Below, piece after piece: positions 1,571 through 60,197 of a stretch of 64,000 bases of DNA. A program made the translations under genes and the position numbers. How positions within the stretch are numbered: the stretch's first letter is position 1; every line of letters begins with the position of its first letter. The stretch comes from Candidatus Campbellbacteria bacterium GW2011_OD1_34_28 (GTDB lineage Bacteria; Patescibacteriota; Minisyncoccia; Phycocordibacterales; UBA12079), in NCBI GenBank assembly GCA_001029775.1, contig CP011215.1, positions 426,303-490,302 on the forward strand, given 5' to 3'. The notes under the pieces are model-generated. The model had not been told where the DNA came from. It saw only the letters and a program-made list of their open reading frames with translations, and ran no database searches.

Positions 1571-3262
1571 ATGTCAAACAATGTTGAAAAAATTAAAGAT
1601 CGTTTGAATATTGTTGACGTTGTTGGTAGTTATTTAAAGTTGGAAAGGGCGGGAGCAAATTTGAAAGCTCCTTGTCCGTTCCACAATGAAAAAACACCGT
1701 CGTTCTTTGTTTCTCCAGATAGAGGAACATACAAATGTTTTGGTTGTGGAGAAGGCGGAGACATCTTTAGCTTTGTAGAAAAATTTGAGGGAGTAGATTT
1801 TCCTCAAGCAATGAGAATACTGGCAGATAAAGCTGGAGTTGTTCTAGAAAAAGAAGATCCAAAATTAAAAAGTGACAGAGACCGACTGTACAAGGTAATG
1901 GAAGAAGCAACACTTTTTTTTGGGGAAAATTTAAAATCACACAAAGGACCGAGAGATTATCTAGAAAAGAGAGGATTAACACAAGAAACGGTTGATAAAT
2001 TCAGAATCGGTTTTGTAAAAGACGAGTGGAGAAATTTGTATGATTTTTTGAAAACAAAAAATTACAGTGATGAAGAAATTGAGAAAGTTGGACTGATTAA
2101 AAAAACAGATAGCGGTTTTTATGACAGGTTTAGAAATAGAATAATTTTTCCAATTTTTGATAGTTCGGATAGGGTAGTAGCCTTTTCAGGAAGACTCTAC
2201 GAAGATGATGGAAAATCGGCAAAGTATTTAAATAGTCCTGAAACAGTTCTTTTTAATAAATCAAAAATATTGTATGGATACAATTTTGCCAAAAAAGATA
2301 TTCGCGTACGAGGATTTTCAATTTTGGTTGAAGGTCAAATGGACCTTGTGATGTCGCATCAAGCAGGTTTCAGTAATACTGTTGCTACATCGGGAACAGC
2401 CCTAACAGGCGAGCATTTGTCTCTTTTGAAAAGATTGTCAGACAAATTGGTTCTGGCATTTGACGGTGACGAGGCTGGTTTGTCCGCTGCCAACAAAGGA
2501 GCAAAGCTTGCTTTGGGATTAGGAATGGAAGTCAAGCTTGTGGAAATATCGGATAACTTGGATCCTGCAGATGTTATACTGAAAGACAAAAGTGTTTGGA
2601 GCAAGTCTTTGCAGAATACGGTACATATAATAGATTTCAATTTAAATTCTTTATTAAAAAAAGGTTTTGATAAAAGAAGATTGGGATTGGAAATAAAAAG
2701 CAAAGTGCTTTTGTTGGTAAATGAATTGAAAAGTAATATTGAACAAGATTATTTTATAAATTCAATTTCTGGTTCGTCAGGAATCCCGCAAGACATTCTT
2801 TGGAAAGATTTAAAAAATATTGATAGTGGTGAAACGGCAAGAGAGTCCAAAGAAATTATTTATGATGAGAAAAAAACTACCGCAACAGCTAGAAAAGAAA
2901 CACTTCGTGAAATATCAGGAATCCTACATTGGCAAAAAGGTTTGAGTGAACCTATGATAAATATTCAAAAATGGGAAGAAAAATTGTTGGATGTTGTCGG
3001 GGAAGAGCTGTTCAACAAGATTCAAAATTTATCAGAAAATGTAAAGAATGAAATTGTTTTTGAGGCAGAAAATAAACATATAGATGAAAATAATTTAAAA
3101 AATAGAATGGAAGGAGCGTTTGAAAAATTGGAGAAAGATATTTTGTTGGATAGAAGAAAGCAAATTCAAGAAGAAATTTCAAAAGAAACAGACGAAAACG
3201 AGAAAATAAAATTGTTCAATGAGATGCTTGAATTATCAAAAAAAATAGATTCAAAAAAATAA
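1571..3262 (+). CDS. dnaG: DNA primase DnaG (CHC2 zinc finger [13 protein letters not shown]...CFGCG, TOPRIM core)
   Basis: N-terminal CHC2 zinc-binding motif and TOPRIM signature ([20 protein letters not shown]); lies 5 bp upstream of rpoD as in the classic macromolecular-synthesis operon. Confidence 0.92.
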
Positions 3263-4721: not shown

Positions 4722-7700
4722 ATGCAAAGTGAGATATTTTTAAATGGCAAAAGGTATCTTTCAACAAAAAAAGCGACAAAAATCACAGAATTGGATGAAG
4801 AACATATTAAAGACCTATGCCGTGAAGAAAAGATAGATTTTACAAAGGTAGAAGGGGAATATTTTGTTGAATTAGAAAAACTTTTTGAATATAAAAACAA
4901 AACAAACAAGCCGATGATTTTGCCTATAAGAGCATTATCAACGGCTGTTTTGGCAATTCTCTTGATCGGAGCAGGTTACTTTTCAGGAGACATATTAAAC
5001 CAACTCAACAAAACAGGGGAGGCTGTTTTTTCTGCGGTAAAAAACACAAAAGAAATAACATACAAAGTTGGTGCAGAAAAAAGAGATTTGTTCAAAACAC
5101 AAATTCTTGATAGCAATGACAATTCTCCCATCAAAGAAATAAAAGACAGTAAAAATGTAAAAACAGTAGATACATACACACAAGACTTTTTAGATTATTT
5201 AGATGGATTAAAAAACAGAATTGTTTCCGTAACAGCTGATAGCTTACAGCTGATAGCTGATAGCACAAACGAAGATGAAGTTGAAAAAACAGTCGATAGT
5301 CGTCAGTCTATAGTCGATAGCACGGACGGCGTAAACATACTTGCAGGACAAGTAGATCACCTCACTTCGTTCGCGAAGACGGGTGTAAACAATTTAGCAT
5401 TGGTAGTCTACGAAACAGCAAGTCCTGTGGAACAGTTTGCAGTAGGTTGGTATAAGTTTGTTAATAATTTGTTTAGTAACGAAGCTGATAGCTTACAGCC
5501 AACAGCTGATAGCGTTGACGAAGCTGACAGCGGACAGCTAACAACCAACAGCGCGAACGAAGACGACTCGTCCGTCTTTGCGAGCGATAGCGAAGCGGAC
5601 AGAGATGAGATCTCGGAAAATGTTCCTTCAGTTCCCGCAACCCCAAAGACCACCACCATCGTTACAAACCCAATCAGAGAAATAATAAAAGAAACCGTTG
5701 TAGAAAGAGTAATCCAAACATCAGGCGTCACACTGGAAGATTTTCAAAAACTAAACAATGAATTAAGAAGTGAAATCTACAAATTATCTTCTGCTACTAA
5801 TTCTCAAATCACCAATACATATCAAGTAATCTCTGCCACCAACAACATCGACAATCTGGGTAGTGTCACAATCACCGACTCAAACATCAGTTCCTCAAAT
5901 GTCTCAGGAACAGAACTAAGCTTTACCAACGGAACAATTCAAAACCTAACTGTCACAGGCACAGCTACCTCTACATACGGTGGCCCTATTTCTGCAACCA
6001 GTGGAACATACTCTGGCAATCTAACTGTCACAGGCAACACCACCCTAAACACTCTTACCGTATCAGGAGACACAATCTTTGACACAGACACTCTTTACAT
6101 CGATTCAATCAACAACCGTGTAGGCATCGGATCAACAACACCTTCAGATACTCTTTCAGTAAACGGAGCAACATACCTTGCACCAATATCAGCTCCATCA
6201 ATTACCACAGACAGACTTTACAATATCTCCAATGATTTATACTGGGGTGGTAATCTTTTAGCAGGTTCAGCCGTTGGTAATTGGACATCCAACGGAACAG
6301 ATGTTTGGAGAGCAAGTGGAAATGTTGGGATTGGGACGACTTCACCTAGTTACAAATTATCCGTTGATGGTTTTGTTGATGCAAGCGGAACAACCGGAGG
6401 TTACAAAATAGATGGTAACACTATTTTGCAGGCAAGCTCAACAAATTATACTACTTTAGTTGGCCAAGGTGCTGGAAGTTCTTTAACAAGTGCTATTAGA
6501 ACTACAGCTATTGGATATGGGGCTTTGGCTAGCACAACTTCTGGTAATAATAATACCGCGGTTGGATATAACGCATTAAATCTTAATTCGACAGGAATAC
6601 TTAACACTGCCATCGGCTCTTTAGCTTTGTCCGTTAATACTACAGGTGACAGAAATACAGCCACAGGTGCCTTGGCTTTGTATTCAAACACAACAGGTTC
6701 ATATAACACAGGAACCGGCGCTTATTCTCTTAATCTAAATACCACAGGAGCAAATAATTCCGCTCACGGACGATCAGCTATGTATTCAAATACAACAGGA
6801 ACATATAACACAGCAGATGGTATGCAGGCACTTTTTAGCAATACTACGGGAAATAATAATACTGCTAGCGGTTACAGCTCTGCTTACTCAAATTCTACAG
6901 GTGGAAGCAATGTGACTATTGGATACGGTGCCTCTTATCGCAACTCAACAGGAAGTTACAACACGGCGATTGGTCAGGACGCAGGTTTTGGTGTTGCGGG
7001 AAATTCTTATTCAAACAATTCATTTTTTGGATACCGATCTGGTTATGGAATAACAGTAGGAAGTAATAATTTATTATTGGGATATCAGGCTGGTGACAAC
7101 GTTACAACAGGATCAAATAATCTTGTAATTGGTTATGATATCGACGCCCCTTCAGCCACCGCTTCAAATCAACTAAATATAGGAAACTTAATTTACGGAA
7201 CAAATATAAACGGAACAGGGACAACTTTGTCGTCAGGAAACATCGGCATCGGCACCACTTCACCTTTTGCAAAACTTTCCGTCAAAGGAGCAGGAACAAC
7301 AACAGGCATAAACTTCCAAACAACCAATTCAGCTGACACTCCGTTGGTGACTGTTTTGGATAGTGGAAATGTGGGCATTGGGACAAGTAATCCATCGACA
7401 GATTTACATGTCGGCAATAGTAACATTAACAATAGTGTAGATTCTGTAATCCTTGTTTCTAGGTTGGTAGATAATAGTGGTGTTGGTTCTGGAGTTAATG
7501 GGCACGCTTTTTCTGATAGCTCGACGATAACCAGAAGTGGCTCTATAGGATATAATTCTTTTGATGGCAGGACAATCTTTTCAGGATCAAATGATTATAA
7601 TCATTACGCTGTTTTTCAAAACGGAACAACCTATAGTTCGTCTGGAACAATGGGAATTATGTACGGATTTGTTAATGTGCCAACGGTTACAGCAGGAACA

Positions 7701-10700
7701 GTAACCAGTATGTATGGTGTTTATACCGCTGATCCAGTAGGAGCAGGCACAGTAACTAATAATTATGGTTTGTTTGTCCCTCAATTAAGCAAAGGAGCAA
7801 CAAAAAATTATGCTATATATACAGCAGGGACCACACGATCTTATTTTGGTGGAATAATAAATAATAGTGCAGGAATCTTGATAGCACCAAACGATGCTAC
7901 AACAAATCCAGCAAAATTATTTGAAATTCAAACAACATCTGGGACAGAAGCGTCTTTAAGAATAAGACAGCTTTCACAAAATTATTGGGATCTTAAATCT
8001 CCAGCAGGGTCAACTCGTTTTGACATATCAGATGTTTCTGGCACATATTTTTCTATATTGAATGGGGGAAACACCGGTTTGGGAATAACAACACCAACAG
8101 GAAAGTTAGAGATTGCTCAAGCTGGGTCAGATACTATAGCAAGTAGAAACCATTTAATATTCGGAGGATCGGAGGGTACGGATTATTTTGGCATGGGTTT
8201 AGATGCTACTGGTGATTTGATGATTGATAATTTAAATGGAACCGATACTAATGTAATGTCGTTATTGAGTTCTGGCAACGTCGGGATTGGGACGGTTAGT
8301 CCGGGGGCGAAGTTGGATGTTGCAACTGCAATAAATACTGGCAGTTTAACATTAGGAGTTGTCCCCTATACCGGTACTGACAGATATGTTGTTTTGAATA
8401 GTAATGGAATTGCTCTAAAGAACAGTATTACATATGGATGGGGGTCTGGATCAACAGATGCTGGAGGAACAAAGGATACTCAATTTTCACGTCTTTCAGC
8501 TGGAAAGATAAGTGTTGATACTGGCACAGTTGGCAATTCTTTAGGTACTCTTATCGCTGGCAACGTCGGCATCGGAACGACGAGTCCGGCTGCGGCTTTG
8601 GAAGTTCAGGGTAATGTTATCTTTAACGACCGCCTGACAATGAATGGTGATTCGGTTGGTTTATCTGCTAATAACTCAAACTACAATACTATTAAAAGTT
8701 TGTTCAGACCTACTTCAAATGGATTAAATTTAACAGGGGCTTTGGTAGATGCAAATTTTGATAACAACTCAGCAAACCTTACAAATGCCTATGGGTTAAG
8801 GATAACAAACGCCATTTCAGGAACTTATACAACAACAAACGCATATGGGCTTTATGTTGAGCAGCCGACAGGGGCAACGAATAATTATGGGGCATATATA
8901 AACGGCAATGTCGGCATTGGTACCACAACACCTTTCAGAAAGTTGAGTGTAGAAGGTAGTGTGTGGATCAGTGGTGATTTAACCGCTAACTCAATTACTG
9001 CCACAAGTTCAATTTCTGCTCCTTACTTTACAGCGACAGACACCACAGCAACTTCTACTTTTGCTGGTGGTTTAACCGTGGGAACAAATAAATTGGTGGT
9101 GGATAGGAGTACGGGAAATGTCGGCATCGGGACGACAGCATCGGACAGGGCGTTACATATTTCTACTAACTCTACAAACTATCAATTAAGACTTGAACGA
9201 ACTGGGACAACAGCTGGTGCTTCTACCTTATATGCAAACTCATCTTTTGCGCTTGGAATTACGGCAGGTAGCGGAACTGGTACAGGAGTATTTACTCTTG
9301 GACAAACGGGCGGTCTTTCTTTGGGAACATATTATGGAACAAACCCCGGAGCGGGAAGCCTAATACTTCCCGGCAACGTCGGGATTGGAACAACCACACC
9401 ATTTAGAAAGTTGAGTGTAGAAGGTGGTGCGTGGATATCTGGTGATTTAACCGTATCAAATATAACAGCCACATCATCTGTCTATTTATCAAACACCACA
9501 TATGCCGACCAGTCAGGTATTATCTACAAAGGAGCCAATTCTTTTATCCACAATTTCAATTATGGGAACAATGGAACAGTGACGACATTGGGACAAAATA
9601 CTTTTGTCGGAGAATTGGCCGGAAACTTTACAATGGGAAGCACGGCAACAGAGACTTACCATGCAAGTAGAAATACAGCAATAGGTTATCAATCCTTACT
9701 CGCCAACACAACAGGATATTATAACACTGCTAATGGTTATCAAACTTTGCGATTAAACACCACAGGAGGCTACAATACCGCTAATGGTTTGCAATCTTTA
9801 TATTCCAACACCACGGGCAATTACAATACTACTAATGGTGCAAATTCTCTCTATCTTAACACCACAGGCTCTTCTAATGTTGCCGACGGCCATTCTGCTG
9901 GTACTTACATCACCGACGGCGTAACAGCCAACACCACGGGAGACTACAATATCTTTATCGGACGAGACACTAAAGCCCTTGCCGACAACGACCAAAATGA
10001 AATCGTTATCGGCTACAACGCCACAGGGGTAGGAAGCAACTCGGTTGTTTTGGGGAATGATAGTATCACAAAAACGATTTTGAAGGGGAATGTCGGCATC
10101 GGCACCACCTCACCTTTTGCAAAACTTTCAGTAACAGGAGCTGGAACAGGCACTGGCTTGGCTTTTCAAGTTGCAAACTCTGCCAATTCTCCAAAATTTA
10201 CTGTTTTGGATAGTGGAAATGTGGGCATTGGGACGATGGGTCCGGAAGGATTATTGCATATCCATTCTACTAGCGCAGGGGATGTTGTTGCACACGCTTC
10301 TTATAATGATTTTGTGATTGAGGGAGGATCAACTGTAGGTATGAATATTCTTTCCGCGGACGTGGGCCTTTCAGGTCTTGGATTTGGCACGCCGTCAGAT
10401 AATTTAGGTAGCTATCTTCAGTGGGATTTTACGAATAATTTAATGTCCGTTGGAACCGCAAGAACAGGCGGAAATCTTAGATTAGTTACTGGAAATAATG
10501 TGGAGCAGATACGAATACAATCAAACGGCAACGTCGGCATCGGAACAACCACACCTTCCGCAAATTTGGATATTTACTCTAACGTAGACTCTAATTCTCG
10601 ACTGAACATTGATTTGGGGGCTGCTTCTTCGAACATTGGTATTAATCTTATATCGTCATCTATCTCCAGCGGTTCATATTGGATAAAAACAACAGGAAAC

Positions 10701-13700
10701 GATAATGAAGATAGTTTTGTTGTTAGAGGAGATGGGGCTGTCGGAATCGGAACAACAACTCCTTCTGCAAAACTCGATATCTATCAAGGTAATTTGAATT
10801 TGGACAACACCACTTTCGCCAACCAATTTGGAGTGATTTCCAAGGGCGGAACAAGGTTTATCCATAATTTCAACTACGGAAACAACGGAACGGTGACGAC
10901 AGTAGGATACAATACTTTCATTGGAGAAAACGCGGGAAACTTGACGATGGGAAGTACGGCGACTTCGGCTAGTCATGCAAGCTACAATACAGGAGTGGGC
11001 TATCAGTCCTTGCAGGCAAACACCACAGGCTATTTCAACACCGCTATTGGTAATCAATCTTTATTATTAAATACCACAGGTTATCACAACACCGCTATTG
11101 GTAATCAATCTTTGCGTGGTAATACCACAGGTAGTTCTAATACCGCTAATGGTTATCAGTCTTTATATTCCAATACAACAGGAGGATTTAATGCTGCCAT
11201 TGGTTATCAATCTTTACGTTCCAACACAACAGGTGGCTATAATATCGCTTTTGGTTATAACGCTGGTCGCTATATTACAGACGGCGTAACAGAAAACACC
11301 ACAGGAGACTACAATATCTTTATCGGACAAGATACCAAAGCCCTTGCCGACGACGACCAAAACGAAATCGTCATCGGCTACAATGCCACAGGGGTAGGAA
11401 GCAACTCGGTTGTTTTGGGTGCCGATACAATCACAAAAACAATTTTGAAGGGGAATGTTGGCATCGGCACCACCTCACCTTTTGCAAAATTATCAGTAAC
11501 AGGAACCGGAACAGGAACTGGCTTGGCTTTTCAAGTTGCCGATTCTGCCAACTCACCAAAATTCACTGTTTTGGATAATGGAAATGTCGGCATTGGGACG
11601 ACGGCGCCAAGCCAGATTTTACATACTTTCAGAAATGATTCAAATACTACAAATAGTATTGAAATTGAGCAAGATGGCTCGGGAGATTCTTCATTAAGAT
11701 TTTTATTAACAGGAGTTACTGGATGGACAATGGGTGTAGATAATTCTGATTCAGATAAATTTAAGATAGGAAATGCACAGTCATTTTCTACAAGTTTTTT
11801 AAACATAGATGGCGCTGGCAACGTCGGTATAGGAACGGCAAATCCAGGGGCGGAACTTGAGATACAAGCAGACGCAAATACAGGCGGAGCTCCTCAATAT
11901 TCACAATTTTGGATTTCTGGAAAGACAGTTAATACAAAACGATTTTATATTGGTATGGATACGAGCACAAATAAAGGTATTCTTTCCGCAGAAACTGGTG
12001 CTGGGGTTTATGCACCTATTGTTATAAATCCATATGGTGGCAATGTTGGCATCGGCACCACAACACCAGGGGCGAAGTTAGATATTAATGGAAATATGAG
12101 AACCTCCATTGGTTCAGGTGGATTTTTGACATTACATGAGACTGATGCTACAAGACAAAATCAGTTGAGTCTGGGAGCTGACGCAAGCGGTGCGTATTTA
12201 GCTTCAACTTATGCGACTGGAGGAGTTGCAGATATTCGTTTTAGTTTAGCAGGTACAGAAAGGGTGCGCATTCAACAGGGTGGTAACGTCGGCATCGGCA
12301 CCACCTCACCTTTTGCAAAATTATCCGTCAAAGGAGCAGGAACAACCACAGGTGTAAACTTCCAAACAACCAATTCGGCTGACACTCCGTTGGTGACTGT
12401 TTTGGATAGTGGGAAGGTGGGTATTGGGACGACGAATCCTGGTACATTATTACAATTAAATATTGATGGTATAGCTAATACACCAAAGGAAGTATTAAGA
12501 GTGTTTAATGGGCTTGCTTATGGTGTTGGTAATGGTTATGGTGAGGCCCAAATAGGCATCGGACACGCTGTATCGGGTGGATATGTCGGTGGTGGAGCTA
12601 CTTCTGAAACTTCAAGTACTAATGGATATCTATCTTTAGGAAATAGGGTATCTAATGTAATGACAGAAGTAGTTAGAATTACTGATGGCAACGTCGGCAT
12701 CGGGACGACGAGTCCGGGAGCAAAGTTAGTTGTAGTGGGAAATGGTACCGCAAGCGTGGCTATAGGGGGTGGAGCATATACAGACTATTCATCTATATCC
12801 TTGAATGGGAGCCTTGCTTCTGGTCAATACAATCTTTTAAGTGGTTATGCTGACAAGACGCTCTATATTAATCGTCCAGCCGGTGCAGATATTTTATTTA
12901 GGGAAAATAATGGTACTGCACAGATGGTCATAAAACAGACAACCGGCAATATCGGCATCGGCACCACATCACCTTTTGCAAAACTATCCATCAAAGGAGC
13001 AGGAACAACCACAGGTGTAAACTTCCAAACAACCAATTCGGCTGATACTCCGCTGGTGACTGTTTTGGATAGTGGGAATGTCGGTATTGGGACGGTGAGT
13101 CCAGGGGCAATGTTGACTATTGTAGGCACTCCTGCTGGAGGTTCCACGAATGTTGGGTTAAATATATATGACAACACGGGGAATGGTGTCGGAATATGGA
13201 CATCAAACGCAGTTGGAAAAATTGGAACACCGAATGCTGTTGATGTTGCATTTATGGCAAACAATAGTGAGAAAATGAGGATATTACAATCGAACGGCAA
13301 CGTCGGCATCGGGACGACGAGTCCAGGAAGTTTGTTGCATTTATATCAAAATACAGTAGGAGTTGGGACTGGTAATGGATTAATGATTGAACAGGATGGA
13401 GCAGGCGACGCTTTAATGCAGTTTTTATTAACGGGGACAGCTAGATGGCAAATGGGCGTTGATAATAGCGATTCTAGAACATTCAAAATTGGAGTTGGTA
13501 GCGATTGGGCAACAAATATTGGCTTGGCAATTACAACTACAGGCAACGTCGGCATCGGCTCAACCGCTCCAAACTACAAACTAACCGTAAACGGAACAGT
13601 AGCTTTCCAAAGTCTTGCTAACAACGGCACTGGCTATTATGTCTGTGCCAACGCTGGAACAGGAGAACTAGCCACATCAACAACAGCCTGCGGAGCATCA

Positions 13701-14624
13701 TCAGAAAGATTTAAAACAAATATAAACGATCTAACATACGGTCTAGACACAGTCCTTCAACTACGCCCTGTATCTTTCAATTGGAAATCAGACTTTATCA
13801 ATTCTTCTTCAACTCAAATCGGATTCATCGCAGAAGAAGTAAACTCTCTTATACCAGAAGTAATCGGACACGATGACAAAGGTACTATCATGAACCTTGA
13901 TTATCCAAAGTTGACTTCGGTTTTGGTAAATGCAGTTAAGGAACTTAATCTAAAAATAGAAAGTATTGCAAGTACAACAAGCCAGTTGATAGCCGACAGC
14001 TCACAACCAACATCTGTTATTGATTCTGTTCTTTCTCATTTAGAAAGTTTGGGTGCTAAGTTTGTTGATGGAATCGCTTATTTAAAAACAGTTTTCGTTG
14101 AAAATCTAACTATTGGTAGTGCGGACAAGCCGACTGGTATGACTTTGTACGACAAAGCAACAGGGGAGCCTTATTGTTTGGAAATTGTTAATGGAGCGAT
14201 GGTAAATACTTCTGGAATTTGTGATACAGCTAATAGCCAGCAGCCAACAGCTGACAGCACGAACTACACCGCACCAGTTATAACAATCACAGGCAACAAC
14301 CCAGCCGTAGTAGAAATAAACAGCAACTATATTGATCTAGGCGCTACAGCAGTAGATAACCAAGGAAACTCTCTAATCGTAGATATAATAGACGCAGATA
14401 CAGTAGACACAACAACAGCCGGAGAATACACAGTTACTTACACAGCATTTGATGGAACACTAACTTCAACAAGTACGAGAACAGTACTTGTTGAAGATCC
14501 GACCCCGTTAGAGACCACGACTGTCTCTGACAGTCTGCCTCTAACGGGGCAAGTAGCTGACAGTCAACAGACAGCGACAACAACAGAGCCGACAACAACG
14601 GAGACGATAGTCGATAGTTTATAG
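4722..14624 (+). CDS. Giant (3300 aa) membrane-anchored repetitive fibre protein: N-terminal cytoplasmic segment + single TM, ~24 GNVGIGTTSPxxKLSV modules, Hep_Hag-like NTAxGxxSL repeats, S74-type intramolecular chaperone domain (SERFKTNI...), C-terminal Ig-like domain
   Basis: Single uninterrupted ORF; TM helix ALSTAVLAILLIGAGYF near residue 75; periodic motif counted in translation; SERFK autoproteolysis motif at nt ~13690-13960; extended -10 TGGTATAAT at ~4699-4707 upstream. Confidence 0.85.
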   Translation: MQSEIFLNGKRYLSTKKATKITELDEEHIKDLCREEKIDFTKVEGEYFVELEKLFEYKNKTNKPMILPIRALSTAVLAILLIGAGYFSGDILNQLNKTGEAVFSAVKNTKEITYKVGAEKRDLFKTQILDSNDNSPIKEIKDSKNVKTVDTYTQDFLDYLDGLKNRIVSVTADSLQLIADSTNEDEVEKTVDSRQSIVDSTDGVNILAGQVDHLTSFAKTGVNNLALVVYETASPVEQFAVGWYKFVNNLFSNEADSLQPTADSVDEADSGQLTTNSANEDDSSVFASDSEADRDEISENVPSVPATPKTTTIVTNPIREIIKETVVERVIQTSGVTLEDFQKLNNELRSEIYKLSSATNSQITNTYQVISATNNIDNLGSVTITDSNISSSNVSGTELSFTNGTIQNLTVTGTATSTYGGPISATSGTYSGNLTVTGNTTLNTLTVSGDTIFDTDTLYIDSINNRVGIGSTTPSDTLSVNGATYLAPISAPSITTDRLYNISNDLYWGGNLLAGSAVGNWTSNGTDVWRASGNVGIGTTSPSYKLSVDGFVDASGTTGGYKIDGNTILQASSTNYTTLVGQGAGSSLTSAIRTTAIGYGALASTTSGNNNTAVGYNALNLNSTGILNTAIGSLALSVNTTGDRNTATGALALYSNTTGSYNTGTGAYSLNLNTTGANNSAHGRSAMYSNTTGTYNTADGMQALFSNTTGNNNTASGYSSAYSNSTGGSNVTIGYGASYRNSTGSYNTAIGQDAGFGVAGNSYSNNSFFGYRSGYGITVGSNNLLLGYQAGDNVTTGSNNLVIGYDIDAPSATASNQLNIGNLIYGTNINGTGTTLSSGNIGIGTTSPFAKLSVKGAGTTTGINFQTTNSADTPLVTVLDSGNVGIGTSNPSTDLHVGNSNINNSVDSVILVSRLVDNSGVGSGVNGHAFSDSSTITRSGSIGYNSFDGRTIFSGSNDYNHYAVFQNGTTYSSSGTMGIMYGFVNVPTVTAGTVTSMYGVYTADPVGAGTVTNNYGLFVPQLSKGATKNYAIYTAGTTRSYFGGIINNSAGILIAPNDATTNPAKLFEIQTTSGTEASLRIRQLSQNYWDLKSPAGSTRFDISDVSGTYFSILNGGNTGLGITTPTGKLEIAQAGSDTIASRNHLIFGGSEGTDYFGMGLDATGDLMIDNLNGTDTNVMSLLSSGNVGIGTVSPGAKLDVATAINTGSLTLGVVPYTGTDRYVVLNSNGIALKNSITYGWGSGSTDAGGTKDTQFSRLSAGKISVDTGTVGNSLGTLIAGNVGIGTTSPAAALEVQGNVIFNDRLTMNGDSVGLSANNSNYNTIKSLFRPTSNGLNLTGALVDANFDNNSANLTNAYGLRITNAISGTYTTTNAYGLYVEQPTGATNNYGAYINGNVGIGTTTPFRKLSVEGSVWISGDLTANSITATSSISAPYFTATDTTATSTFAGGLTVGTNKLVVDRSTGNVGIGTTASDRALHISTNSTNYQLRLERTGTTAGASTLYANSSFALGITAGSGTGTGVFTLGQTGGLSLGTYYGTNPGAGSLILPGNVGIGTTTPFRKLSVEGGAWISGDLTVSNITATSSVYLSNTTYADQSGIIYKGANSFIHNFNYGNNGTVTTLGQNTFVGELAGNFTMGSTATETYHASRNTAIGYQSLLANTTGYYNTANGYQTLRLNTTGGYNTANGLQSLYSNTTGNYNTTNGANSLYLNTTGSSNVADGHSAGTYITDGVTANTTGDYNIFIGRDTKALADNDQNEIVIGYNATGVGSNSVVLGNDSITKTILKGNVGIGTTSPFAKLSVTGAGTGTGLAFQVANSANSPKFTVLDSGNVGIGTMGPEGLLHIHSTSAGDVVAHASYNDFVIEGGSTVGMNILSADVGLSGLGFGTPSDNLGSYLQWDFTNNLMSVGTARTGGNLRLVTGNNVEQIRIQSNGNVGIGTTTPSANLDIYSNVDSNSRLNIDLGAASSNIGINLISSSISSGSYWIKTTGNDNEDSFVVRGDGAVGIGTTTPSAKLDIYQGNLNLDNTTFANQFGVISKGGTRFIHNFNYGNNGTVTTVGYNTFIGENAGNLTMGSTATSASHASYNTGVGYQSLQANTTGYFNTAIGNQSLLLNTTGYHNTAIGNQSLRGNTTGSSNTANGYQSLYSNTTGGFNAAIGYQSLRSNTTGGYNIAFGYNAGRYITDGVTENTTGDYNIFIGQDTKALADDDQNEIVIGYNATGVGSNSVVLGADTITKTILKGNVGIGTTSPFAKLSVTGTGTGTGLAFQVADSANSPKFTVLDNGNVGIGTTAPSQILHTFRNDSNTTNSIEIEQDGSGDSSLRFLLTGVTGWTMGVDNSDSDKFKIGNAQSFSTSFLNIDGAGNVGIGTANPGAELEIQADANTGGAPQYSQFWISGKTVNTKRFYIGMDTSTNKGILSAETGAGVYAPIVINPYGGNVGIGTTTPGAKLDINGNMRTSIGSGGFLTLHETDATRQNQLSLGADASGAYLASTYATGGVADIRFSLAGTERVRIQQGGNVGIGTTSPFAKLSVKGAGTTTGVNFQTTNSADTPLVTVLDSGKVGIGTTNPGTLLQLNIDGIANTPKEVLRVFNGLAYGVGNGYGEAQIGIGHAVSGGYVGGGATSETSSTNGYLSLGNRVSNVMTEVVRITDGNVGIGTTSPGAKLVVVGNGTASVAIGGGAYTDYSSISLNGSLASGQYNLLSGYADKTLYINRPAGADILFRENNGTAQMVIKQTTGNIGIGTTSPFAKLSIKGAGTTTGVNFQTTNSADTPLVTVLDSGNVGIGTVSPGAMLTIVGTPAGGSTNVGLNIYDNTGNGVGIWTSNAVGKIGTPNAVDVAFMANNSEKMRILQSNGNVGIGTTSPGSLLHLYQNTVGVGTGNGLMIEQDGAGDALMQFLLTGTARWQMGVDNSDSRTFKIGVGSDWATNIGLAITTTGNVGIGSTAPNYKLTVNGTVAFQSLANNGTGYYVCANAGTGELATSTTACGASSERFKTNINDLTYGLDTVLQLRPVSFNWKSDFINSSSTQIGFIAEEVNSLIPEVIGHDDKGTIMNLDYPKLTSVLVNAVKELNLKIESIASTTSQLIADSSQPTSVIDSVLSHLESLGAKFVDGIAYLKTVFVENLTIGSADKPTGMTLYDKATGEPYCLEIVNGAMVNTSGICDTANSQQPTADSTNYTAPVITITGNNPAVVEINSNYIDLGATAVDNQGNSLIVDIIDADTVDTTTAGEYTVTYTAFDGTLTSTSTRTVLVEDPTPLETTTVSDSLPLTGQVADSQQTATTTEPTTTETIVDSL
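7241..7384 (+). repeat. ~145 bp intragenic DNA repeat (copy 1 of 3; copies at 12291..12434 and 12951..13094) encoding GIGTTSPFAKLSVKGAGTTTG(I/V)NFQTTNSADTPLVTVLDSG
   Basis: Near-identical nucleotide stretches read directly in sequence. Confidence 0.8.
9500..10215 (+). repeat. ~700 bp intragenic duplication (second copy ~10820..11595) encoding FIHNFNYGNNGTVTT...Hep_Hag repeats...GNVGIGTTSPFAKLSVTG
   Basis: Long collinear nucleotide similarity between the two segments inside the giant gene. Confidence 0.75.
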
Positions 14625-49706: not shown

Positions 49707-49937
49707 TTATATGATCAAAGCTATAAAAGCTGAAGCTACAAAAAGAATAGCAAGAGTAACTGTGATATAAAAGAAAATCTTTTCTGCGCCTCTTCTTGTG
49801 TGTCTTGCAGAAAAATTGTCTCCACCACCAAAAGCACCTCCCAAGTCATTACCAGTTTGTTGAATCAAAATGGCTGCTACAAGGAGAACAGCTAGTGTTA
49901 TCTGTATAAAAGGAAGTATATTAGTTAAATTTTCCAT
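49707..49937 (-). CDS. secG: Preprotein translocase subunit SecG
   Basis: Two TM helices separated by glycine-rich GNDLGGAFGGGDNF loop; leaderless-type TATAAT 8 nt before ATG. Confidence 0.8.
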   Translation of the reverse strand: MENLTNILPFIQITLAVLLVAAILIQQTGNDLGGAFGGGDNFSARHTRRGAEKIFFYITVTLAILFVASAFIALII

Positions 49938-50183
49938 CCCCAGAATTATAGCAAGAAGACTTAAAAAAGCAATAGAAGTCCTAAAAGTTTATAAAGTTTG
50001 TAAAGTTCATAAAGTCCGTAAAGTTATGTATGTAATCAGAGTCGAGCCTCGAGAAATAGGGAATTAAACTTTTAAAATAAAGGATTTTTTAGCATTGACA
50101 AAGATGTTGTATTATACTATAATAATAAAAGAATAAGGGTTGGCTATGGGAGGCTGGCTCAAAAAAGAAAGAGGGTAAAAAAA

Positions 50184-50300
50184 ATGATGTACACAACGAA
50201 GATGTTGGAGATTATCTCCACCTTGACTGAAGTAGATGAGGCTGCTGCCGTAGCGATGTTGCTCGGAGACCTCGAAGAGTCTGAGATCAGTTTCGACTGA
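50184..50300 (+). CDS. Micro-ORF (38 codons, acidic peptide MMYTTKMLEIISTLTEVDEAAAVAMLLGDLEESEISFD) with promoter TTGACA-N17-TATAAT and GAGGG SD, followed by terminator
   Basis: Promoter at ~50096..50125; GC-elevated codons; terminator ATCCCCCGAG CTTCGG CTCTGGGGGAT T4ATTT at 50313..50346; speculative. Confidence 0.3.
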   Translation: MMYTTKMLEIISTLTEVDEAAAVAMLLGDLEESEISFD

Positions 50301-50378
50301 TCTCGCAATTTAATCCCCCGAGCTTCGGCTCTGGGGGATTTTTATTTACCCGAGGTCGGACCTCGGGTAAATAAAAAG

Positions 50379-50420
50379 AGGGATTTTGCTAAAGCAAAAT
50401 CCCTCTTTATTTATTTCGTA
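50379..50420 (-). terminator. Intrinsic terminator of topA (GAGGGATTTTGC...GCAAAATCCCTC + T-run on minus strand); part of a cluster of four hairpins 50283..50420
   Basis: 12-bp stem with A-run upstream on plus strand (T-run on minus). Confidence 0.7.
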
Positions 50421-50469
50421 TTACTTATTCCTCACCCCTTACTCCTTAACCCTTAACCCTTAACCCTTA

Positions 50470-52689
50470 CTACTTGCTACTCAACTTATCCGGCCTATGG
50501 TTCGGGCAATTTTTATCACTACATCTGTCAGGGATTGTTTTGGTACCTTTCATCATCAGCTTGCCACACATTGGGCAAAGATTTCCTGTTGGCTCTGCTT
50601 TGATAGCCAACTTACAATCGGGATAATTTGAACAAGAATAAAATTCTCCAAATCTCCCTCTTCTTTTTACCATATATCCGTTCTTACATTCGGTACACTT
50701 AACACCAGTAGAATTTTTTCTTTCCAATTCTTCATCTTTTTTTACAAACTTACATTTTGGATAATTTGAACAAGCAATAAATCTTCCAAATTTTCCGTCT
50801 CTCTCTACCAAAGGATTTCCACAATCAGGACATGGCTCGCCAGTTTCTTTCGGACCTTCCAATTCTTTTCCTTCTATTGTTCGAGCACCATTACAATCTG
50901 GAAATTTTGCACAGCTCATAAATTTGCCATTTTTTGCAAGTTTAATAACCATTGCGCCCCCACACTCTGGACATTTAAATTCTTTTGGTGCATCACCCAG
51001 ATTGGTTATTTTTTCTATTCCTTCTTTTGCTTTAATATCTTTTGTAAAAGGTGTGTAAAATTCTGTTAGAGTTTTTACATAATCTCTTTCTCCATTTGCT
51101 ATTTCGTCCAATTTATCTTCCATCTCGGCAGTAAACAAATCGCTGATGTAGTTTTCAAAATGATTTTCCAAAAAAGTACTCACTACTTCGCCTGTGTCTG
51201 TTGGTCGCAAAGCAGTTCCTTCTTTGTCGGCATAAGCGCGGTCTTTTAATGTTTTTATAATTGTCGCATAGGTGCTGGGACGACCAATTCCTCTTTTCTC
51301 CAATTCTTTAATCAGACCAGCTTCGGAGTATCTTTGAGGTGGTTGAGTCTGCTTGTCTTCTACATTCATTTTTAATAAATCTAAATCCTCGCCAATTTTT
51401 ATTGCAGGCAATTCTGTGTCTTCTCCTCGAGCAGAAGGATCGGCCAAAAGCCATCCATCAAAAAGAACTCGAGATCCGTTTATATTAAATTCTGGTATTC
51501 TTGCCTCGCCGGCAGGCAGGTTTTCTTTTCCCTCAACATCAACGACGATTTTTGATCTTAATATTTTTGCATCGGACATTTGAGAGGCAATTGTTCTTTG
51601 CCAAATCAATCTATACAATTTTTTCTGTTCATCGGTTGATCCAACATTTTCTTTTGTTATGCTTGTTGGACGAATTGCTTCGTGAGCTTCTTGTGCATTT
51701 TTTGACTTTGTTTTGTATACTCTCGCCTCAACATATTTCTTGCCGTATTTTTTTTCTATCTCGCTTAAAATTTGTTTTTGAGCAGTTTGGCTAATTGTCG
51801 TGCTGTCAGTTCTCATATAAGTAATGTATCCTGCTTCGTACAATTTTTGGGCGACACCCATTGTCTTGCTTGGAGCAAATCCCATTCTAGAGCTGGCTGT
51901 TTGTTGTAGTGTAGATGTAGTAAAAGGAGCACGAGGAGATCTCTTTGCCTCGGTTTCTTTTAGATCGGCTACTTTCCAAGTGCCGTTATTTCCGACTTCA
52001 AGAATTTTTTCTACTTGATTTTTGTCGCGGGGTTCTTCTGAACAATTCAAGGTAAAAGTAGTTGCAGATTTTGTTTTTACATCTGCGGTGATTACGAAGT
52101 AGTCTTCTGGAATGAAAGCTTTTATTTCTCTTTCTTTTTCAACCAAAATACGCAAAGCAGGGGACTGAACCCTTCCTGCAGAAAGACCATAACGAACTTT
52201 TTTCCAAATCAAACCGCTAAGATCGTATCCAAAAAGTCTATCTAAAACACGACGAGCTTCTTGAGCTCGTCTTAAATTATCATCTATATCACGCGGGTGT
52301 TTCAGCGCTTCTTTGATTGCACTTTCGGTAATTTCGTTAAAGGTCACTCTCTTGATACTTGATACTTGTAACTTATTACTCTTCAAATCCTCTTTTAGGA
52401 TTTGAAGCAGGTGCCACGCAATAGCTTCTCCTTCACGGTCAGGATCGGGGGCGAGAATAATCTCGTCTGCATCCTTTGCAAGAGTCTTTAATTCTTTTAT
52501 CACCTTTTCTTTTCCCTTGATTGTTTCATAGTTGGGAATGAACCCTCCTTCTATATCTATGGCTGTTTTATTGCTTTTAGGCAAATCACGAATATGTCCC
52601 ACAGATGATGTGACAACGTAATCTTTGCCAAGATATTTATTAATAGTCTTTGCTTTCGCAGGAGACTCTACTATCAAAAGTTTTGACAT
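50470..52689 (-). CDS. topA: DNA topoisomerase I with C-terminal zinc-ribbon repeats
   Basis: TOPRIM MSKLLIVESPAKAKTI, catalytic region, multiple CPxCG zinc fingers. Confidence 0.95.
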   Translation of the reverse strand: MSKLLIVESPAKAKTINKYLGKDYVVTSSVGHIRDLPKSNKTAIDIEGGFIPNYETIKGKEKVIKELKTLAKDADEIILAPDPDREGEAIAWHLLQILKEDLKSNKLQVSSIKRVTFNEITESAIKEALKHPRDIDDNLRRAQEARRVLDRLFGYDLSGLIWKKVRYGLSAGRVQSPALRILVEKEREIKAFIPEDYFVITADVKTKSATTFTLNCSEEPRDKNQVEKILEVGNNGTWKVADLKETEAKRSPRAPFTTSTLQQTASSRMGFAPSKTMGVAQKLYEAGYITYMRTDSTTISQTAQKQILSEIEKKYGKKYVEARVYKTKSKNAQEAHEAIRPTSITKENVGSTDEQKKLYRLIWQRTIASQMSDAKILRSKIVVDVEGKENLPAGEARIPEFNINGSRVLFDGWLLADPSARGEDTELPAIKIGEDLDLLKMNVEDKQTQPPQRYSEAGLIKELEKRGIGRPSTYATIIKTLKDRAYADKEGTALRPTDTGEVVSTFLENHFENYISDLFTAEMEDKLDEIANGERDYVKTLTEFYTPFTKDIKAKEGIEKITNLGDAPKEFKCPECGGAMVIKLAKNGKFMSCAKFPDCNGARTIEGKELEGPKETGEPCPDCGNPLVERDGKFGRFIACSNYPKCKFVKKDEELERKNSTGVKCTECKNGYMVKRRGRFGEFYSCSNYPDCKLAIKAEPTGNLCPMCGKLMMKGTKTIPDRCSDKNCPNHRPDKLSSK

Positions 52690-52831: not shown

Positions 52832-53992
52832 ATGGCAAAGTCACTGGTAGGAATTCAGACATTGGAGTCTCTCGCTGGCTGGAAAATGATCGCCGAGAGG
52901 ACTAACGAGACCGAGGAGACTGTCCAGACCGGTCAGACCAAACCCGCAGAGTTCCGGATTTATCGGAACGATGACTTGGGGGTCGAGATTCATGTCCGGC
53001 GTTCGCTGGTCAAGGAAGGACTCGATTTCCTGCCTGGGATGGTAAAGGATGTCGAGACAGGAAAAGACCTGTGGAGTTTTTTTCAGGAGCAGTCCAAAGG
53101 ACTCGGACACCTGCTCGCCATTAACGGCGAGGTGGTCATCGGCCTGGAGGAGTGGGGCGATCTGAAGAAGGTCATCCCCGTCGCCGATCTGCGCAAGCAG
53201 AAGACCGTCGTCGTTGATGGCGTGTCCAAAATTGTCGGTGGTCGTGGCGTTCTCGCTACGGTCGATCTCAAACACTCGGTTGCCGAGGCGCTTTCTACCG
53301 ATCAGGGCAGGAGCATCAAGGCCAACATCACCGACGCCGAGCGCGCGGTGATGAGAAAACTTTCTGATGCCCGCAAGGCCAGTGAGGAGCGTGAGCGATT
53401 GGCACGGGAAACCGCGCGTCGCGAGCGGATCGCCAAGATCAAGAGCCGGCAACAGATTTCCGGCATGGTCGTGGAGAACGGCAGGGGTTCGCGTTGGGCG
53501 ATTCCTGTCACAGAAGACGAATGGATGTCTTTTGGGACCGACGACGGCATGGTTGCCATCGTTGCCGGTTTCGGTGAAGACGGCAAGCCCATCGTTCCCG
53601 AAGACGGAGTGGTGGAGGCATTTTTCATTCAGTATCGCAAGGGCGGTGGTGGACGGCCGGAGAAGAAGGCACAGGTGAAAATCCGTCTTCGTGGCTACGA
53701 ACAGGCCGAGCCCGTGAAGGAAGCATCCGTCTCCGCACCGACGCTCGTCAAACTGGAAACCGTCTTTATCGAGGTTTCCAAGGATCAGGCGAAATCCCTC
53801 GGCATCGATTCCGGATTTCAGGAAGTCAGTCTTACGGATGCAGAGGGGATTTCCACTCTGCGGAAGGCAGGTCTCAACAGCGGTGCGCTCGTCGCGATCT
53901 CCGCCACCGACGGATCCGATCGGATTCAGGTGGAGAAGTTCGTTGACGGCCAGACGCAGACCTTGGGCCTCTTTAATCCGATCACGATGTGA
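52832..53992 (+). CDS. Hypothetical protein (386 aa) in ~58% GC cassette with TTGACA promoter, AGGAGGTG SD and hairpin terminator; two globular halves joined by basic coiled-coil (ERERLARETARRERIAKIKSRQQ)
   Basis: SD 52817..52824; promoter gtaTTGACAaat...TAGTAT at ~52762..52795; terminator CCCGTCGTTGC...GCAACGACGGG T6 at 54013..54062. Confidence 0.7.
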   Translation: MAKSLVGIQTLESLAGWKMIAERTNETEETVQTGQTKPAEFRIYRNDDLGVEIHVRRSLVKEGLDFLPGMVKDVETGKDLWSFFQEQSKGLGHLLAINGEVVIGLEEWGDLKKVIPVADLRKQKTVVVDGVSKIVGGRGVLATVDLKHSVAEALSTDQGRSIKANITDAERAVMRKLSDARKASEERERLARETARRERIAKIKSRQQISGMVVENGRGSRWAIPVTEDEWMSFGTDDGMVAIVAGFGEDGKPIVPEDGVVEAFFIQYRKGGGGRPEKKAQVKIRLRGYEQAEPVKEASVSAPTLVKLETVFIEVSKDQAKSLGIDSGFQEVSLTDAEGISTLRKAGLNSGALVAISATDGSDRIQVEKFVDGQTQTLGLFNPITM

Positions 53993-54146: not shown

Positions 54147-54362
54147 ATGCCAGCAACAGAAAAAGATTGGAGAAATTGGCAAGATATCAATGGTAATTCG
54201 GAAGGACTAAGTCCAACCGAATTAATGAACATTCGTTATCGTCACGGCAGAGCCGAGGCTGTAAGGGCAATCACCTGTCCACCGGGGAGAGACCCTCAGA
54301 CATGGGAAGATCAGATTCAAAATTTTTTGGTGTCCAAGGAATTCGGACATCGCGTTCATTAA
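54147..54362 (+). CDS. Small hypothetical protein (71 aa) with GAGGAGGTG SD, own TTGACA-N16-TAGTAT promoter and terminator GGCGGAGTGTC ACAA GACACTCCGCC T7
   Basis: SD at 54133..54141; promoter at ~54071..54099; terminator 54376..54408. Confidence 0.6.
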   Translation: MPATEKDWRNWQDINGNSEGLSPTELMNIRYRHGRAEAVRAITCPPGRDPQTWEDQIQNFLVSKEFGHRVH

Positions 54363-59132: not shown

Positions 59133-60197
59133 ATGAAAAAGAGAATTATTCTCTTAGTTTTGTTGGGTCTTTTTTCGGTTTCTACAGCAATGGCGAGTAC
59201 ATTGGTGGTGGAGCAGATTACTCAGCCGTTGAGTGGTCTCGCACCGGAAGGAGCGACGAGGATCCCTTTCTCAAAAGTGCGTTTTCGTGCACAGGACGGC
59301 AAGGTCGCCCTTTATGGCGTCTATGTTGAGAAAACGGGAATGGCCGGACAGGTCTTCTCTGGAGTTGCATTACTTCGTAATGGGGTTCAAATGGGAACGA
59401 CCGTCACCAGTTTTGGTGCGGACAATCGGGCAATGTTAATGGCAGATTCACCGTTTGAAATCGCCGACGGTTCCTCTTACGACTTAACTGTCGTGGGGAA
59501 TATGCGCGACGATTTGTCGGGAGATGATGGTAAAACCATCGGTATTGCCATCGTCGGTGTCTGGACGACAGCGACTGTGCAGGGTTTTGTTCTAATCGAA
59601 GGAACTCACCGGACGGCGAGTTCCGACTATGTCATTGGCGCTGTCAACGCAACAGCTGGTGAGGACAATCCGTCAGCTGGATCAACTGCTTACCCCGGAG
59701 AGACAAAAATTTTCTCTTCGGTAAGTTTGATCGCTTCGTCCGTTGAGGACGAGGTTCTCAAATCAGTGATGGTGAAGGCGTCGGGGAACGCAACCAAAAG
59801 TGATTACAACAGTGTGGTGCTTTTGGTCGGTGGGACAAACTATCCGATGACTGTTTTGCCGGACGGCAGGTACTACGCAGGCGGGATCAATAAAACCATC
59901 ACGAACACCGCTAAAACGAAAGTATCGATTTCTGCAAATGTGGTCGGAGGCGTTGGTAAAACAATCGCCTTTGATATCGTAGAATCAACTGATGTTGAAT
60001 TGGCCGGTGCAATTACCGGATTCGGTACAACGCCGATCGGATCAGGACCTTCGTTCGGTTCGTTCCCTTGGTTCAAGGGAACGACGACGAGCATCGTTCA
60101 GGCACCAACACCGCCTCCTCCTTTACCACCACCGACTGCGAAACAACGCAAGGCGGCAGCAATGACGGCCATTCGGTCGCTGTTGCAGGACAAGTAG
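59133..60197 (+). CDS. Secreted hypothetical protein (354 aa; signal peptide, two related beta-rich domains, PTPPPPLPPPT C-terminal linker) in ~55% GC cassette with AAGGAGGT SD and 20-bp hairpin terminator
   Basis: SD 59119..59126; signal peptide MKKRIILLVLLGLFSVSTAMAS; terminator AAGAGCAGATTTTGTGCG..CGCACAAAATCTGCTCTT at 60201..60246. Confidence 0.65.
   Translation: MKKRIILLVLLGLFSVSTAMASTLVVEQITQPLSGLAPEGATRIPFSKVRFRAQDGKVALYGVYVEKTGMAGQVFSGVALLRNGVQMGTTVTSFGADNRAMLMADSPFEIADGSSYDLTVVGNMRDDLSGDDGKTIGIAIVGVWTTATVQGFVLIEGTHRTASSDYVIGAVNATAGEDNPSAGSTAYPGETKIFSSVSLIASSVEDEVLKSVMVKASGNATKSDYNSVVLLVGGTNYPMTVLPDGRYYAGGINKTITNTAKTKVSISANVVGGVGKTIAFDIVESTDVELAGAITGFGTTPIGSGPSFGSFPWFKGTTTSIVQAPTPPPPLPPPTAKQRKAAAMTAIRSLLQDK

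Follow-up and report, generated by a model that had tools for sequence, protein, structure and literature searches.

The spacer between secG and topA in Candidatus Campbellbacteria bacterium GW2011_OD1_34_28 holds tandem repeats, a promoter, a very short open reading frame (ORF; this one is called the micro-ORF) and a row of hairpins, and the question it raises is whether these make up one regulatory element or include a gene in its own right. The spacer lies in a stretch of 64,000 nucleotides of contig CP011215.1, which was analysed as a whole and is called the window. In an earlier note on this DNA, a leader peptide or attenuator, a small secreted or regulatory peptide and a structured small RNA (sRNA) had all been put forward. 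In our assessment, the micro-ORF is likely to be a strongly promoted, monocistronic gene for a micro-protein, which was gained when DNA inserted into a spacer prone to recombination, and its ORF occurs in two exchangeable forms. The anatomy of the gene, the constraint on its coding, its insertion and its dimorphism were demonstrated.

Anatomy of the micro-gene

The micro-ORF is read on the plus strand, between secG (49707-49937, minus strand, with a Pfam SecG match) and topA (50470-52689, minus strand), and its direction of transcription is convergent with that of topA. It is part of a unit at about 50095-50347 on the plus strand, which consists of a promoter, a 5' stem-loop, a Shine-Dalgarno (SD) sequence, the ORF, a hairpin over the stop codon and a terminator.

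50095-50123, plus strand: sigma-70 consensus promoter, TTGACA-N17-TATAAT, matching at 12/12 positions
50137-50160, plus strand: 5' stem-loop of the mRNA, GGGUUGGCU-AUGGGA-GGCUGGCUC, a predicted fold
50171-50175, plus strand: SD sequence GAGGG, 8 nt before the ATG (AAGGAG in other lineages)
50184-50300, plus strand: type A micro-gene of 38 codons, MMYTTKMLEIISTLTEVDEAAAVAMLLGDLEESEISFD, under coding constraint
50283-50304, plus strand: hairpin 1, an inverted repeat with a 9-bp stem (arms 50283-50291 and 50296-50304) and a UUCG loop
50312-50347, plus strand: hairpin 2, an intrinsic terminator (arms 50312-50319 and 50333-50340) with C(UUCG)G and one bulged U, followed by UUUUUAUUU

The consensus promoter that had been pointed out in the earlier note was recovered, and its perfect match is unique in the 64 kb window; transcription of the micro-gene would start near 50130. 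For comparison, loci of relatives were used. The micro-gene, or cassette, is present in the window and at L093, L105 (joined with L102), L004 (= L091) and L101, and absent from L094, L095, L098, L103 and L104. Both promoter hexamers are identical across the five cassette-bearing loci, the start codon is conserved, and an SD sequence (GAGGG or AAGGAG) stands 7-9 nt before the ATG in 5/5 of them. Hairpin 1 covers the last five codons and the UGA stop, and is preserved by G-U wobbles in L093 and L105.

The four hairpins described in the earlier note (the two above and hairpins 3 and 4, treated below) were all found with both their arms, and its coordinates for the region were off by 1-2 nt at most. 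A 296-nt stretch of the region has a folding energy of -118.1 kcal/mol (z = -7.98), and 0/200 shuffled sequences fold as well; four terminator-like sites are observed in the region, against 0.9 expected. Both the minimum free energy fold and the centroid fold consist of four independent hairpins with no competing pairing.

A short ORF followed by several hairpins, with a terminator 11 nt past its stop codon, is what an attenuator would look like, in which translation of the micro-ORF as a leader peptide controls hairpin formation and hence read-through into a gene further downstream. However, no gene follows on the plus strand, topA being convergent and provided with its own conserved terminator, and the hairpins offer no mutually exclusive alternatives. 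Furthermore, an unrelated ORF body can take the place of this one, and the whole unit is absent from relatives that share the flanking genes. Attenuation is thus extremely improbable.

No gathering-threshold match to Rfam was obtained over the whole window, and at E values up to 10 the region gave sub-threshold terminator-like matches only, the best local score, on the palindrome of hairpin 4, being 28.7 bits where the threshold is 55.8. Neither a tRNA nor a tmRNA was detected by ARAGORN. The 64 kb window contains no second copy of hairpin 2, of hairpin 3, of the promoter-leader block or of the cassette; hence they do not belong to a family of the repetitive extragenic palindrome or miniature inverted-repeat transposable element kind in the window. 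Two candidate frames were rejected because they are not conserved in relatives, namely an antisense ORF of 49 codons and an extension of the micro-ORF to an upstream in-frame ATG.

Evidence for coding

The form of the ORF found in the window is called type A. Three versions of it were compared, A1 from the window, A2 from L093 and A3 from L105; all three have the secG-X-topA context (in L093, and in L105 joined with L102). Between A1 and A2 there are 12 synonymous and 8 non-synonymous changes, with a synonymous divergence (dS) of 0.88 and a ratio of non-synonymous to synonymous divergence (dN/dS) of 0.106. Between A1 and A3 the differences at the three codon positions number 4/3/16 (binomial p = 4e-4). 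A core is common to all three, KMLEIISxLTE[VM]DEAAAVAMLLGDLEE[ST]E[IV]SFD. This pattern indicates that the micro-ORF codes for a protein. Of the proposals in the earlier note, a pure structured sRNA is not supported since the substitutions follow the codon frame, and the small regulatory peptide is borne out to the extent that the ORF is a real coding gene.

The protein, which includes the peptide stretch MLEIISTLTEVDEAAAVAMLLGDLEESEISFD, has a net charge of -8, an acidic tail and no transmembrane segment. Its highest 19-residue Kyte-Doolittle mean is 1.31, in a stretch that contains Asp and Glu. A single helix over residues 2-32 and a disordered acidic tail were predicted by AlphaFold, with a predicted local distance difference test score of 75.8. 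A phmmer search of 1.84 billion representative proteins returned only the type A gene itself and one relative, and a further search added the third.

Two forms of the ORF

In L004 and L091 a different ORF of 30 codons, MSTQEKKALLVQLRQMGLTEKEIMAIMKTA, occupies the place of the type A ORF; it is called type B. Of the matches to the leader motif in a metagenome scan, one was a true locus (L091, identical to L004) and 7 were due to chance. L101 carries a variant which is 80% identical to the type B of L004; between the two, dN/dS is 0.27 and the synonymous changes include a Ser AGT-to-TCT switch and Leu CTC/TTG switches. The type B peptide has a charge of +2 and is amphipathic and hydrophilic, with a highest 19-residue Kyte-Doolittle mean of 0.65.

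Between the window and L004, the 3' end of topA is 97.8% identical and the promoter and leader are 79-86% identical, while the ORFs reach 49% with gaps and have unalignable bodies. Identity declines towards the ORF from both sides, through 99, 92.6, 86 and 79% from secG and through 97.7, 95, 92 and 81% from topA. Both types of ORF are surrounded by conserved promoter hexamers, 5' stem-loop, SD site and hairpin 2, and in the type B mRNAs a different hairpin lies over the stop codon, in the same place as hairpin 1. Pairs of loci with the same ORF type have topA identities of 92.4% and 90.7%, below that of the A/B pair formed by the window and L004. The leader subtype is likewise independent of the ORF type: GGGTTGG with a GAGGGT SD and GGGCTGG with an AAGGAG SD each occur with A and with B. 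Because neither topA distances nor leader subtypes track the ORF type, the two forms are either older than the lineages or have been exchanged by recombination in the flanks.

Allelic loci with conserved flanks are represented by the pherotype genes comC and agrD and by fungal mating-type idiomorphs. The micro-locus resembles these in that very dissimilar short ORFs occupy one site with conserved flanks in near-identical strains, divergence being highest at the ORF. Unlike comC and agrD, it lacks an export leader, a double-glycine motif and adjacent genes for processing, transport or reception, and the A and B peptides differ in charge and length, which goes beyond the variation of a specificity segment in pherotype loci. 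A bacterial idiomorph, in which a fixed expression platform (promoter, 5' stem-loop, SD and terminator) carries one or the other of two non-homologous micro-proteins, both kept up by balancing selection in co-occurring strains of this ultra-small bacterium, is a tentative and rather unlikely reading. Under it, strain discrimination, host interaction, or conflict with phages or competitors would be possible drivers, and the GC-rich coding could be kept by selection.

Neither peptide has a signal sequence or a double-glycine leader, as read directly from the sequences; together with the charge of -8 and the lack of a transmembrane segment in type A, this speaks against the secreted peptide of the earlier note. 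Searches of Pfam, NCBIfam, PHROG and PDB sequences with types A and B yielded nothing, or generic helical noise only. Neither peptide gave a tblastn match among 50,697 phage records, and scans of viral contigs with the terminator, leader and type B peptide patterns were negative.

In hok/sok, ldr, tisB and ibs/sib, which are examples of type I toxin-antitoxin systems, a further parallel may be sought. In such a system a toxic peptide would be held in check by an antisense RNA and its translation limited by the structured leader. The micro-gene is comparable in being a compact, self-contained, lineage-specific and sporadic unit, apparently mobile, in which a tiny ORF and a structured 5' leader are set between a strong promoter and a strong terminator, and weak promoter-like matches (9/12) occur on the minus strand at 50146 and 50101. 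Judged by sequence, these were the only promoter-like matches on that strand, and no conserved antisense promoter or terminator, and no antisense RNA gene, could be recognised. The type A peptide, however, is acidic and soluble, without a membrane helix, and type B is hydrophilic; neither gave a toxin or antitoxin match in Pfam, NCBIfam or PHROG, the PADLOC defence library not having been searched. A toxin-antitoxin function is highly improbable.

A dual-function or purely regulatory sRNA, with a transcript of about 215 nt acting by base-pairing or protein binding and the ORF being secondary, was also considered. It would account for the very stable fold, for the 5' stem-loop and terminator being conserved more than the ORF body, and for a stop codon that lies inside a hairpin in both ORF types. 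The G+C content at third codon positions (GC3) of the ORFs also remains within 0.64-0.74, although dS is about 0.7-0.9. When codons were permuted synonymously in the five mRNAs, the native L101 mRNA proved more stable than its permuted versions (z = -3.0), but over all five the z values were inconsistent, from +0.38 to -3.0; hence it is unproven that the RNA structure of the coding part is under selection. Besides the tracking of the codon frame by substitutions and the lack of an Rfam family at the gathering threshold, it stands against this explanation that the A and B RNA bodies are wholly different, with no common pairing seed outside the leader. An sRNA is an unlikely explanation of the locus.

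Insertion into the topA-secG spacer

In L094, L095, L098 and L103, where TopA is 79-82% identical to that of the window (78-82% over the relatives without the micro-gene), topA is followed directly by secG across a spacer of 57-161 nt with no ORF. The spacers lie at 5274-5388 in L094, 3635-3776 in L095, 5166-5327 in L098, 4669-4726 in L103 and 4666-5769 in L104. The last is 1.1 kb long and contains two small, unrelated genes (96 and 93 aa), which are mildly GC-enriched, have no Pfam match and come with terminators and a TTGACA promoter of their own. With lengths in the clade ranging from 57 nt without a gene up to 1.1 kb, the topA-secG spacer is an insertion hot spot. By the same comparison, the block of promoter, ORF and hairpin 2 is an insertion in one species-level clade of Candidatus Campbellbacteria. 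Conservation of the micro-ORF among relatives, which the earlier note had raised as a check, was found in part: the peptide frame is conserved within the carrying clade, and the region is absent where TopA identity is 82% or lower.

The cassette is flanked by two copies of an ancestral motif (TTTAC, a palindrome, TAA.., AGRGGAATT), which is single-copy in L094.

50039-50065, no strand assigned: decayed upstream copy of the ancestral motif (palindrome, TAA.., AGGGAATT), forming the left direct repeat; it aligns with the L094 motif and with the downstream copy
50348-50368, no strand assigned: hairpin 3, the palindrome ACCCGAGGTC-G-GACCTCGGGT (longer arms 50339-50357 and 50359-50377), the right-hand copy of the ancestral palindrome

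In L093, the upstream motif copy is 92% identical to hairpin 3 over 26 nt. On neither strand is hairpin 3 followed by a U-run of its own, and a single homologue of it is present in L094 and in L095. In L004 its place is taken by an AT-rich insert of about 130 nt with a long hairpin (about 2430-2570, reverse strand), and in L101 hairpin 3 and a neighbouring AT-rich insert lie between hairpins 2 and 4. L101 also has another perfect palindrome, TTTTCATTCATACATTCAATTGAATGTATGAATGAAAA. The unit differs from an integron cassette in having its own consensus promoter and in that no integrase was called within about 3 kb on each side; the flanking palindromes were not compared with attC models.

A hot spot of this kind may also collect non-functional debris, that is, remnants or accidental frames derived from foreign or duplicated DNA in a recombination-prone spacer. 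The other cargo of L104, the strain-specific hairpin insertions and repeat expansions, the foreign-looking GC content of the ORF and its want of homologues are all in keeping with this. Nevertheless, both ORF types are under purifying selection and are intact in every copy, and the promoter, SD and terminator are preserved where topA differs by 8-10%, which leaves debris very unlikely.

Elements belonging to secG and topA

When relatives are compared, the region resolves into four parts that are independent of one another, and hence it is not the one composite element that had been suggested in the earlier note. The parts are the variable-number repeats upstream of secG, the gene cassette, the ancestral palindrome, and the topA terminator with the repeats of the 3' untranslated region (3' UTR). 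L094 and L095, which have no micro-gene, keep the hairpin 4 sequence, one palindrome like hairpin 3 and 9-bp repeats of the ACTTTA type. The elements outside the cassette and its borders are as follows.

49945-49972, minus strand: secG promoter, with a -35 element TTGCTT, a 16-nt spacer and an extended -10 element TGCTATAAT
49976-50025, no strand assigned: 9-bp tandem repeats, AACTTTAYR on the secG strand, found by Tandem Repeats Finder (TRF) with period 9 and 4.7 copies at 49984-50025
50375-50408, minus strand: hairpin 4, the topA intrinsic terminator (arms 50375-50390 and 50393-50408), followed by UUUUUAUUU on the minus strand
50436-50469, minus strand: 7-bp repeats, GGGTTAA on the topA strand (CCCTTAA on the plus strand), 4.9 copies by TRF

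Both repeat arrays, the 9-bp one and the TTAACCC one, had been claimed in the earlier note and were recovered by TRF. The secG promoter ends 7 nt before the ATG at 49937 and there is no usable SD; since the promoter ends so close to the start codon, the secG mRNA appears to be leaderless or nearly so, and a 7-9 nt arrangement is conserved in L103 and L104. The 9-bp array lies directly upstream of the secG -35 element and is independent of the micro-gene. With 5 occurrences in the window, where 1.07 are expected, the sequence TAAAGTNNNTAAAGT is enriched relative to shuffled sequence, and 4/5 of them are within the array. L095 has three units more than L094, L101 has five perfect units and L093 has none; judged by these sequences, the array is a variable-number repeat upstream of the secG promoter. 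In L004, a GC-rich hairpin of 42 nt is inserted in the array. A 65-codon ORF at 49870-50067 on the plus strand (2687-2884 in L001, with one public annotation) was rejected as most likely spurious, being antisense to the secG start, with KVYKVCKVHKVRKV corresponding to the translated 9-bp repeats.

Over 6 sequences, hairpin 4 shows 2 compensatory double changes and pairing in 97.8% of cells. Because of these changes, of the U-run on the minus strand and of its retention without the micro-gene in L094 and L095, it was concluded that hairpin 4 is the topA terminator, in agreement with the earlier note. Being symmetric, it could also stop read-through on the plus strand. The 7-bp repeats are located in the topA 3' UTR, after the stop codon and ahead of the terminator, and their copy number is strain-variable: they are absent in L093, expanded and varied in L101, and different in L102 and L094. 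The array of hairpins 2-4 between the micro-gene and topA resembles the terminator clusters of convergent genes, with the symmetric hairpin 4 having its U-run on the topA strand. Unlike the members of such clusters, hairpin 3 lacks a U-run and behaves as a duplicated palindrome that marks the insertion borders.

Neighbouring genes and base composition

The genes for a solute-binding protein and RNase J are neighbours at the locus, along with secG and topA. The local proteins are named Candidatus Campbellbacteria bacterium (Parcubacteria, Candidate Phyla Radiation, CPR), and 6.1 kb around the micro-ORF match contig LBQN01000002.1 of GCA_000990865.1. The micro-ORF itself had already been deposited as AKM84169.1 and KKP75030.1, both as "hypothetical protein".

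The description of the 38-codon ORF in the earlier note as GC-elevated was accurate, as was its SD: the GC content is 0.48 and GC3 is 0.64, compared with a GC3 of 0.19-0.32 in ordinary ORFs of at least 150 aa in the window. Among window ORFs of that length, GC3 exceeds 0.32 only in GC-rich genes and in antisense shadow frames. The GC-rich genes, whose composition the micro-ORF shares, include those of a 386-aa protein (52832-53992, plus strand; GC 0.57, GC3 0.68, in a genome of about 34% GC) and a 354-aa protein (59133-60197, plus strand; GC and GC3 both 0.51). These two proteins have no Pfam or NCBIfam match and are unrelated to each other. A 71-aa protein with an ITCPPGR motif (54147-54362, plus strand) belongs to the strongly GC-rich group. 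In relatives, the 386-aa family is divergent, lies upstream of topA and still has a GC3 of 0.50-0.66; because these copies stay GC-rich, its GC anomaly is persistent and not the result of recent transfer. Elsewhere in the window, a single ORF of 3,300 codons (4722-14624, plus strand), a giant protein gene, has a raised GC content of 0.41 and an unusual GC content of 0.49 at second codon positions.

Comparison with small-protein genes and proposed mechanism

Independently transcribed bacterial small-protein genes of up to 50 codons form a class that has been catalogued (PMC11364881; 10.1101/511675), and in the second source its members are presented as regulators of larger proteins (10.1101/511675). 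Like the members of this class, the micro-gene encodes 30-38 residues with a single predicted helix, has its own promoter, SD and terminator, is conserved in frame among close relatives and is missed or called "hypothetical" in annotation. It differs in having no homologues outside one species-level clade in the searched collections, in occurring in two unrelated forms, and in a codon composition far from that of the host genome. Many characterised bacterial small proteins have a transmembrane helix, and this too is a difference. In a literature search, no paper was found that dealt with this locus or with micro-proteins of the CPR.

For the micro-protein gene preferred here, the following course of expression is proposed. 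The consensus promoter at 50095-50123 would give rise to an mRNA of about 215 nt, which is probably stabilised by the 5' stem-loop at 50137-50160. From the SD and ATG, a strongly acidic protein of 38 residues would be made, predicted to be a single amphipathic helix, with the stop codon inside the UUCG hairpin; transcription would end at the C(UUCG)G hairpin and U-run at 50312-50347. Hairpins 3 and 4, the pre-existing palindrome and the topA terminator, would insulate the two converging transcripts. The A and B ORFs would be exchanged when the conserved flanks recombine. As for the protein, its amphipathic helix probably serves to bind a larger partner.

Several points weigh against this explanation. 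No homologue or domain match constrains the function, and the expression of the gene is deduced from signals in the sequence. The searched collections contained no more than three sequences of type A and two of type B, so that few substitutions were available for the selection tests, and the codon-position test does not reach significance for type B by itself (9/20 differences, p = 0.19). In the 5' stem-loop, 4 substitutions among 3 distinct versions leave 100% of cells paired, which is not significant, as such pair-preserving changes are statistically indistinguishable from shuffles. Finally, given its high GC3 and its many hairpins, the transcript may have an additional role at the RNA level.

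The micro-gene is of a familiar class, that of small accessory genes at insertion hot spots, but it belongs to no described family. Its recognition adds a well-supported micro-protein gene without a family to a CPR genome, in which verification is not possible for most small ORFs, and sorts out ordinary terminators and variable-number repeats from the hairpins and repeats that surround it. The dimorphism is the feature worth following, with two unrelated ORFs on one conserved platform beside topA genes that are 97.8% identical. If both forms are kept by selection, the locus would provide, in organisms that are so far closed to genetic study, a compact marker, tractable by experiment, of strain-level conflict or recognition.

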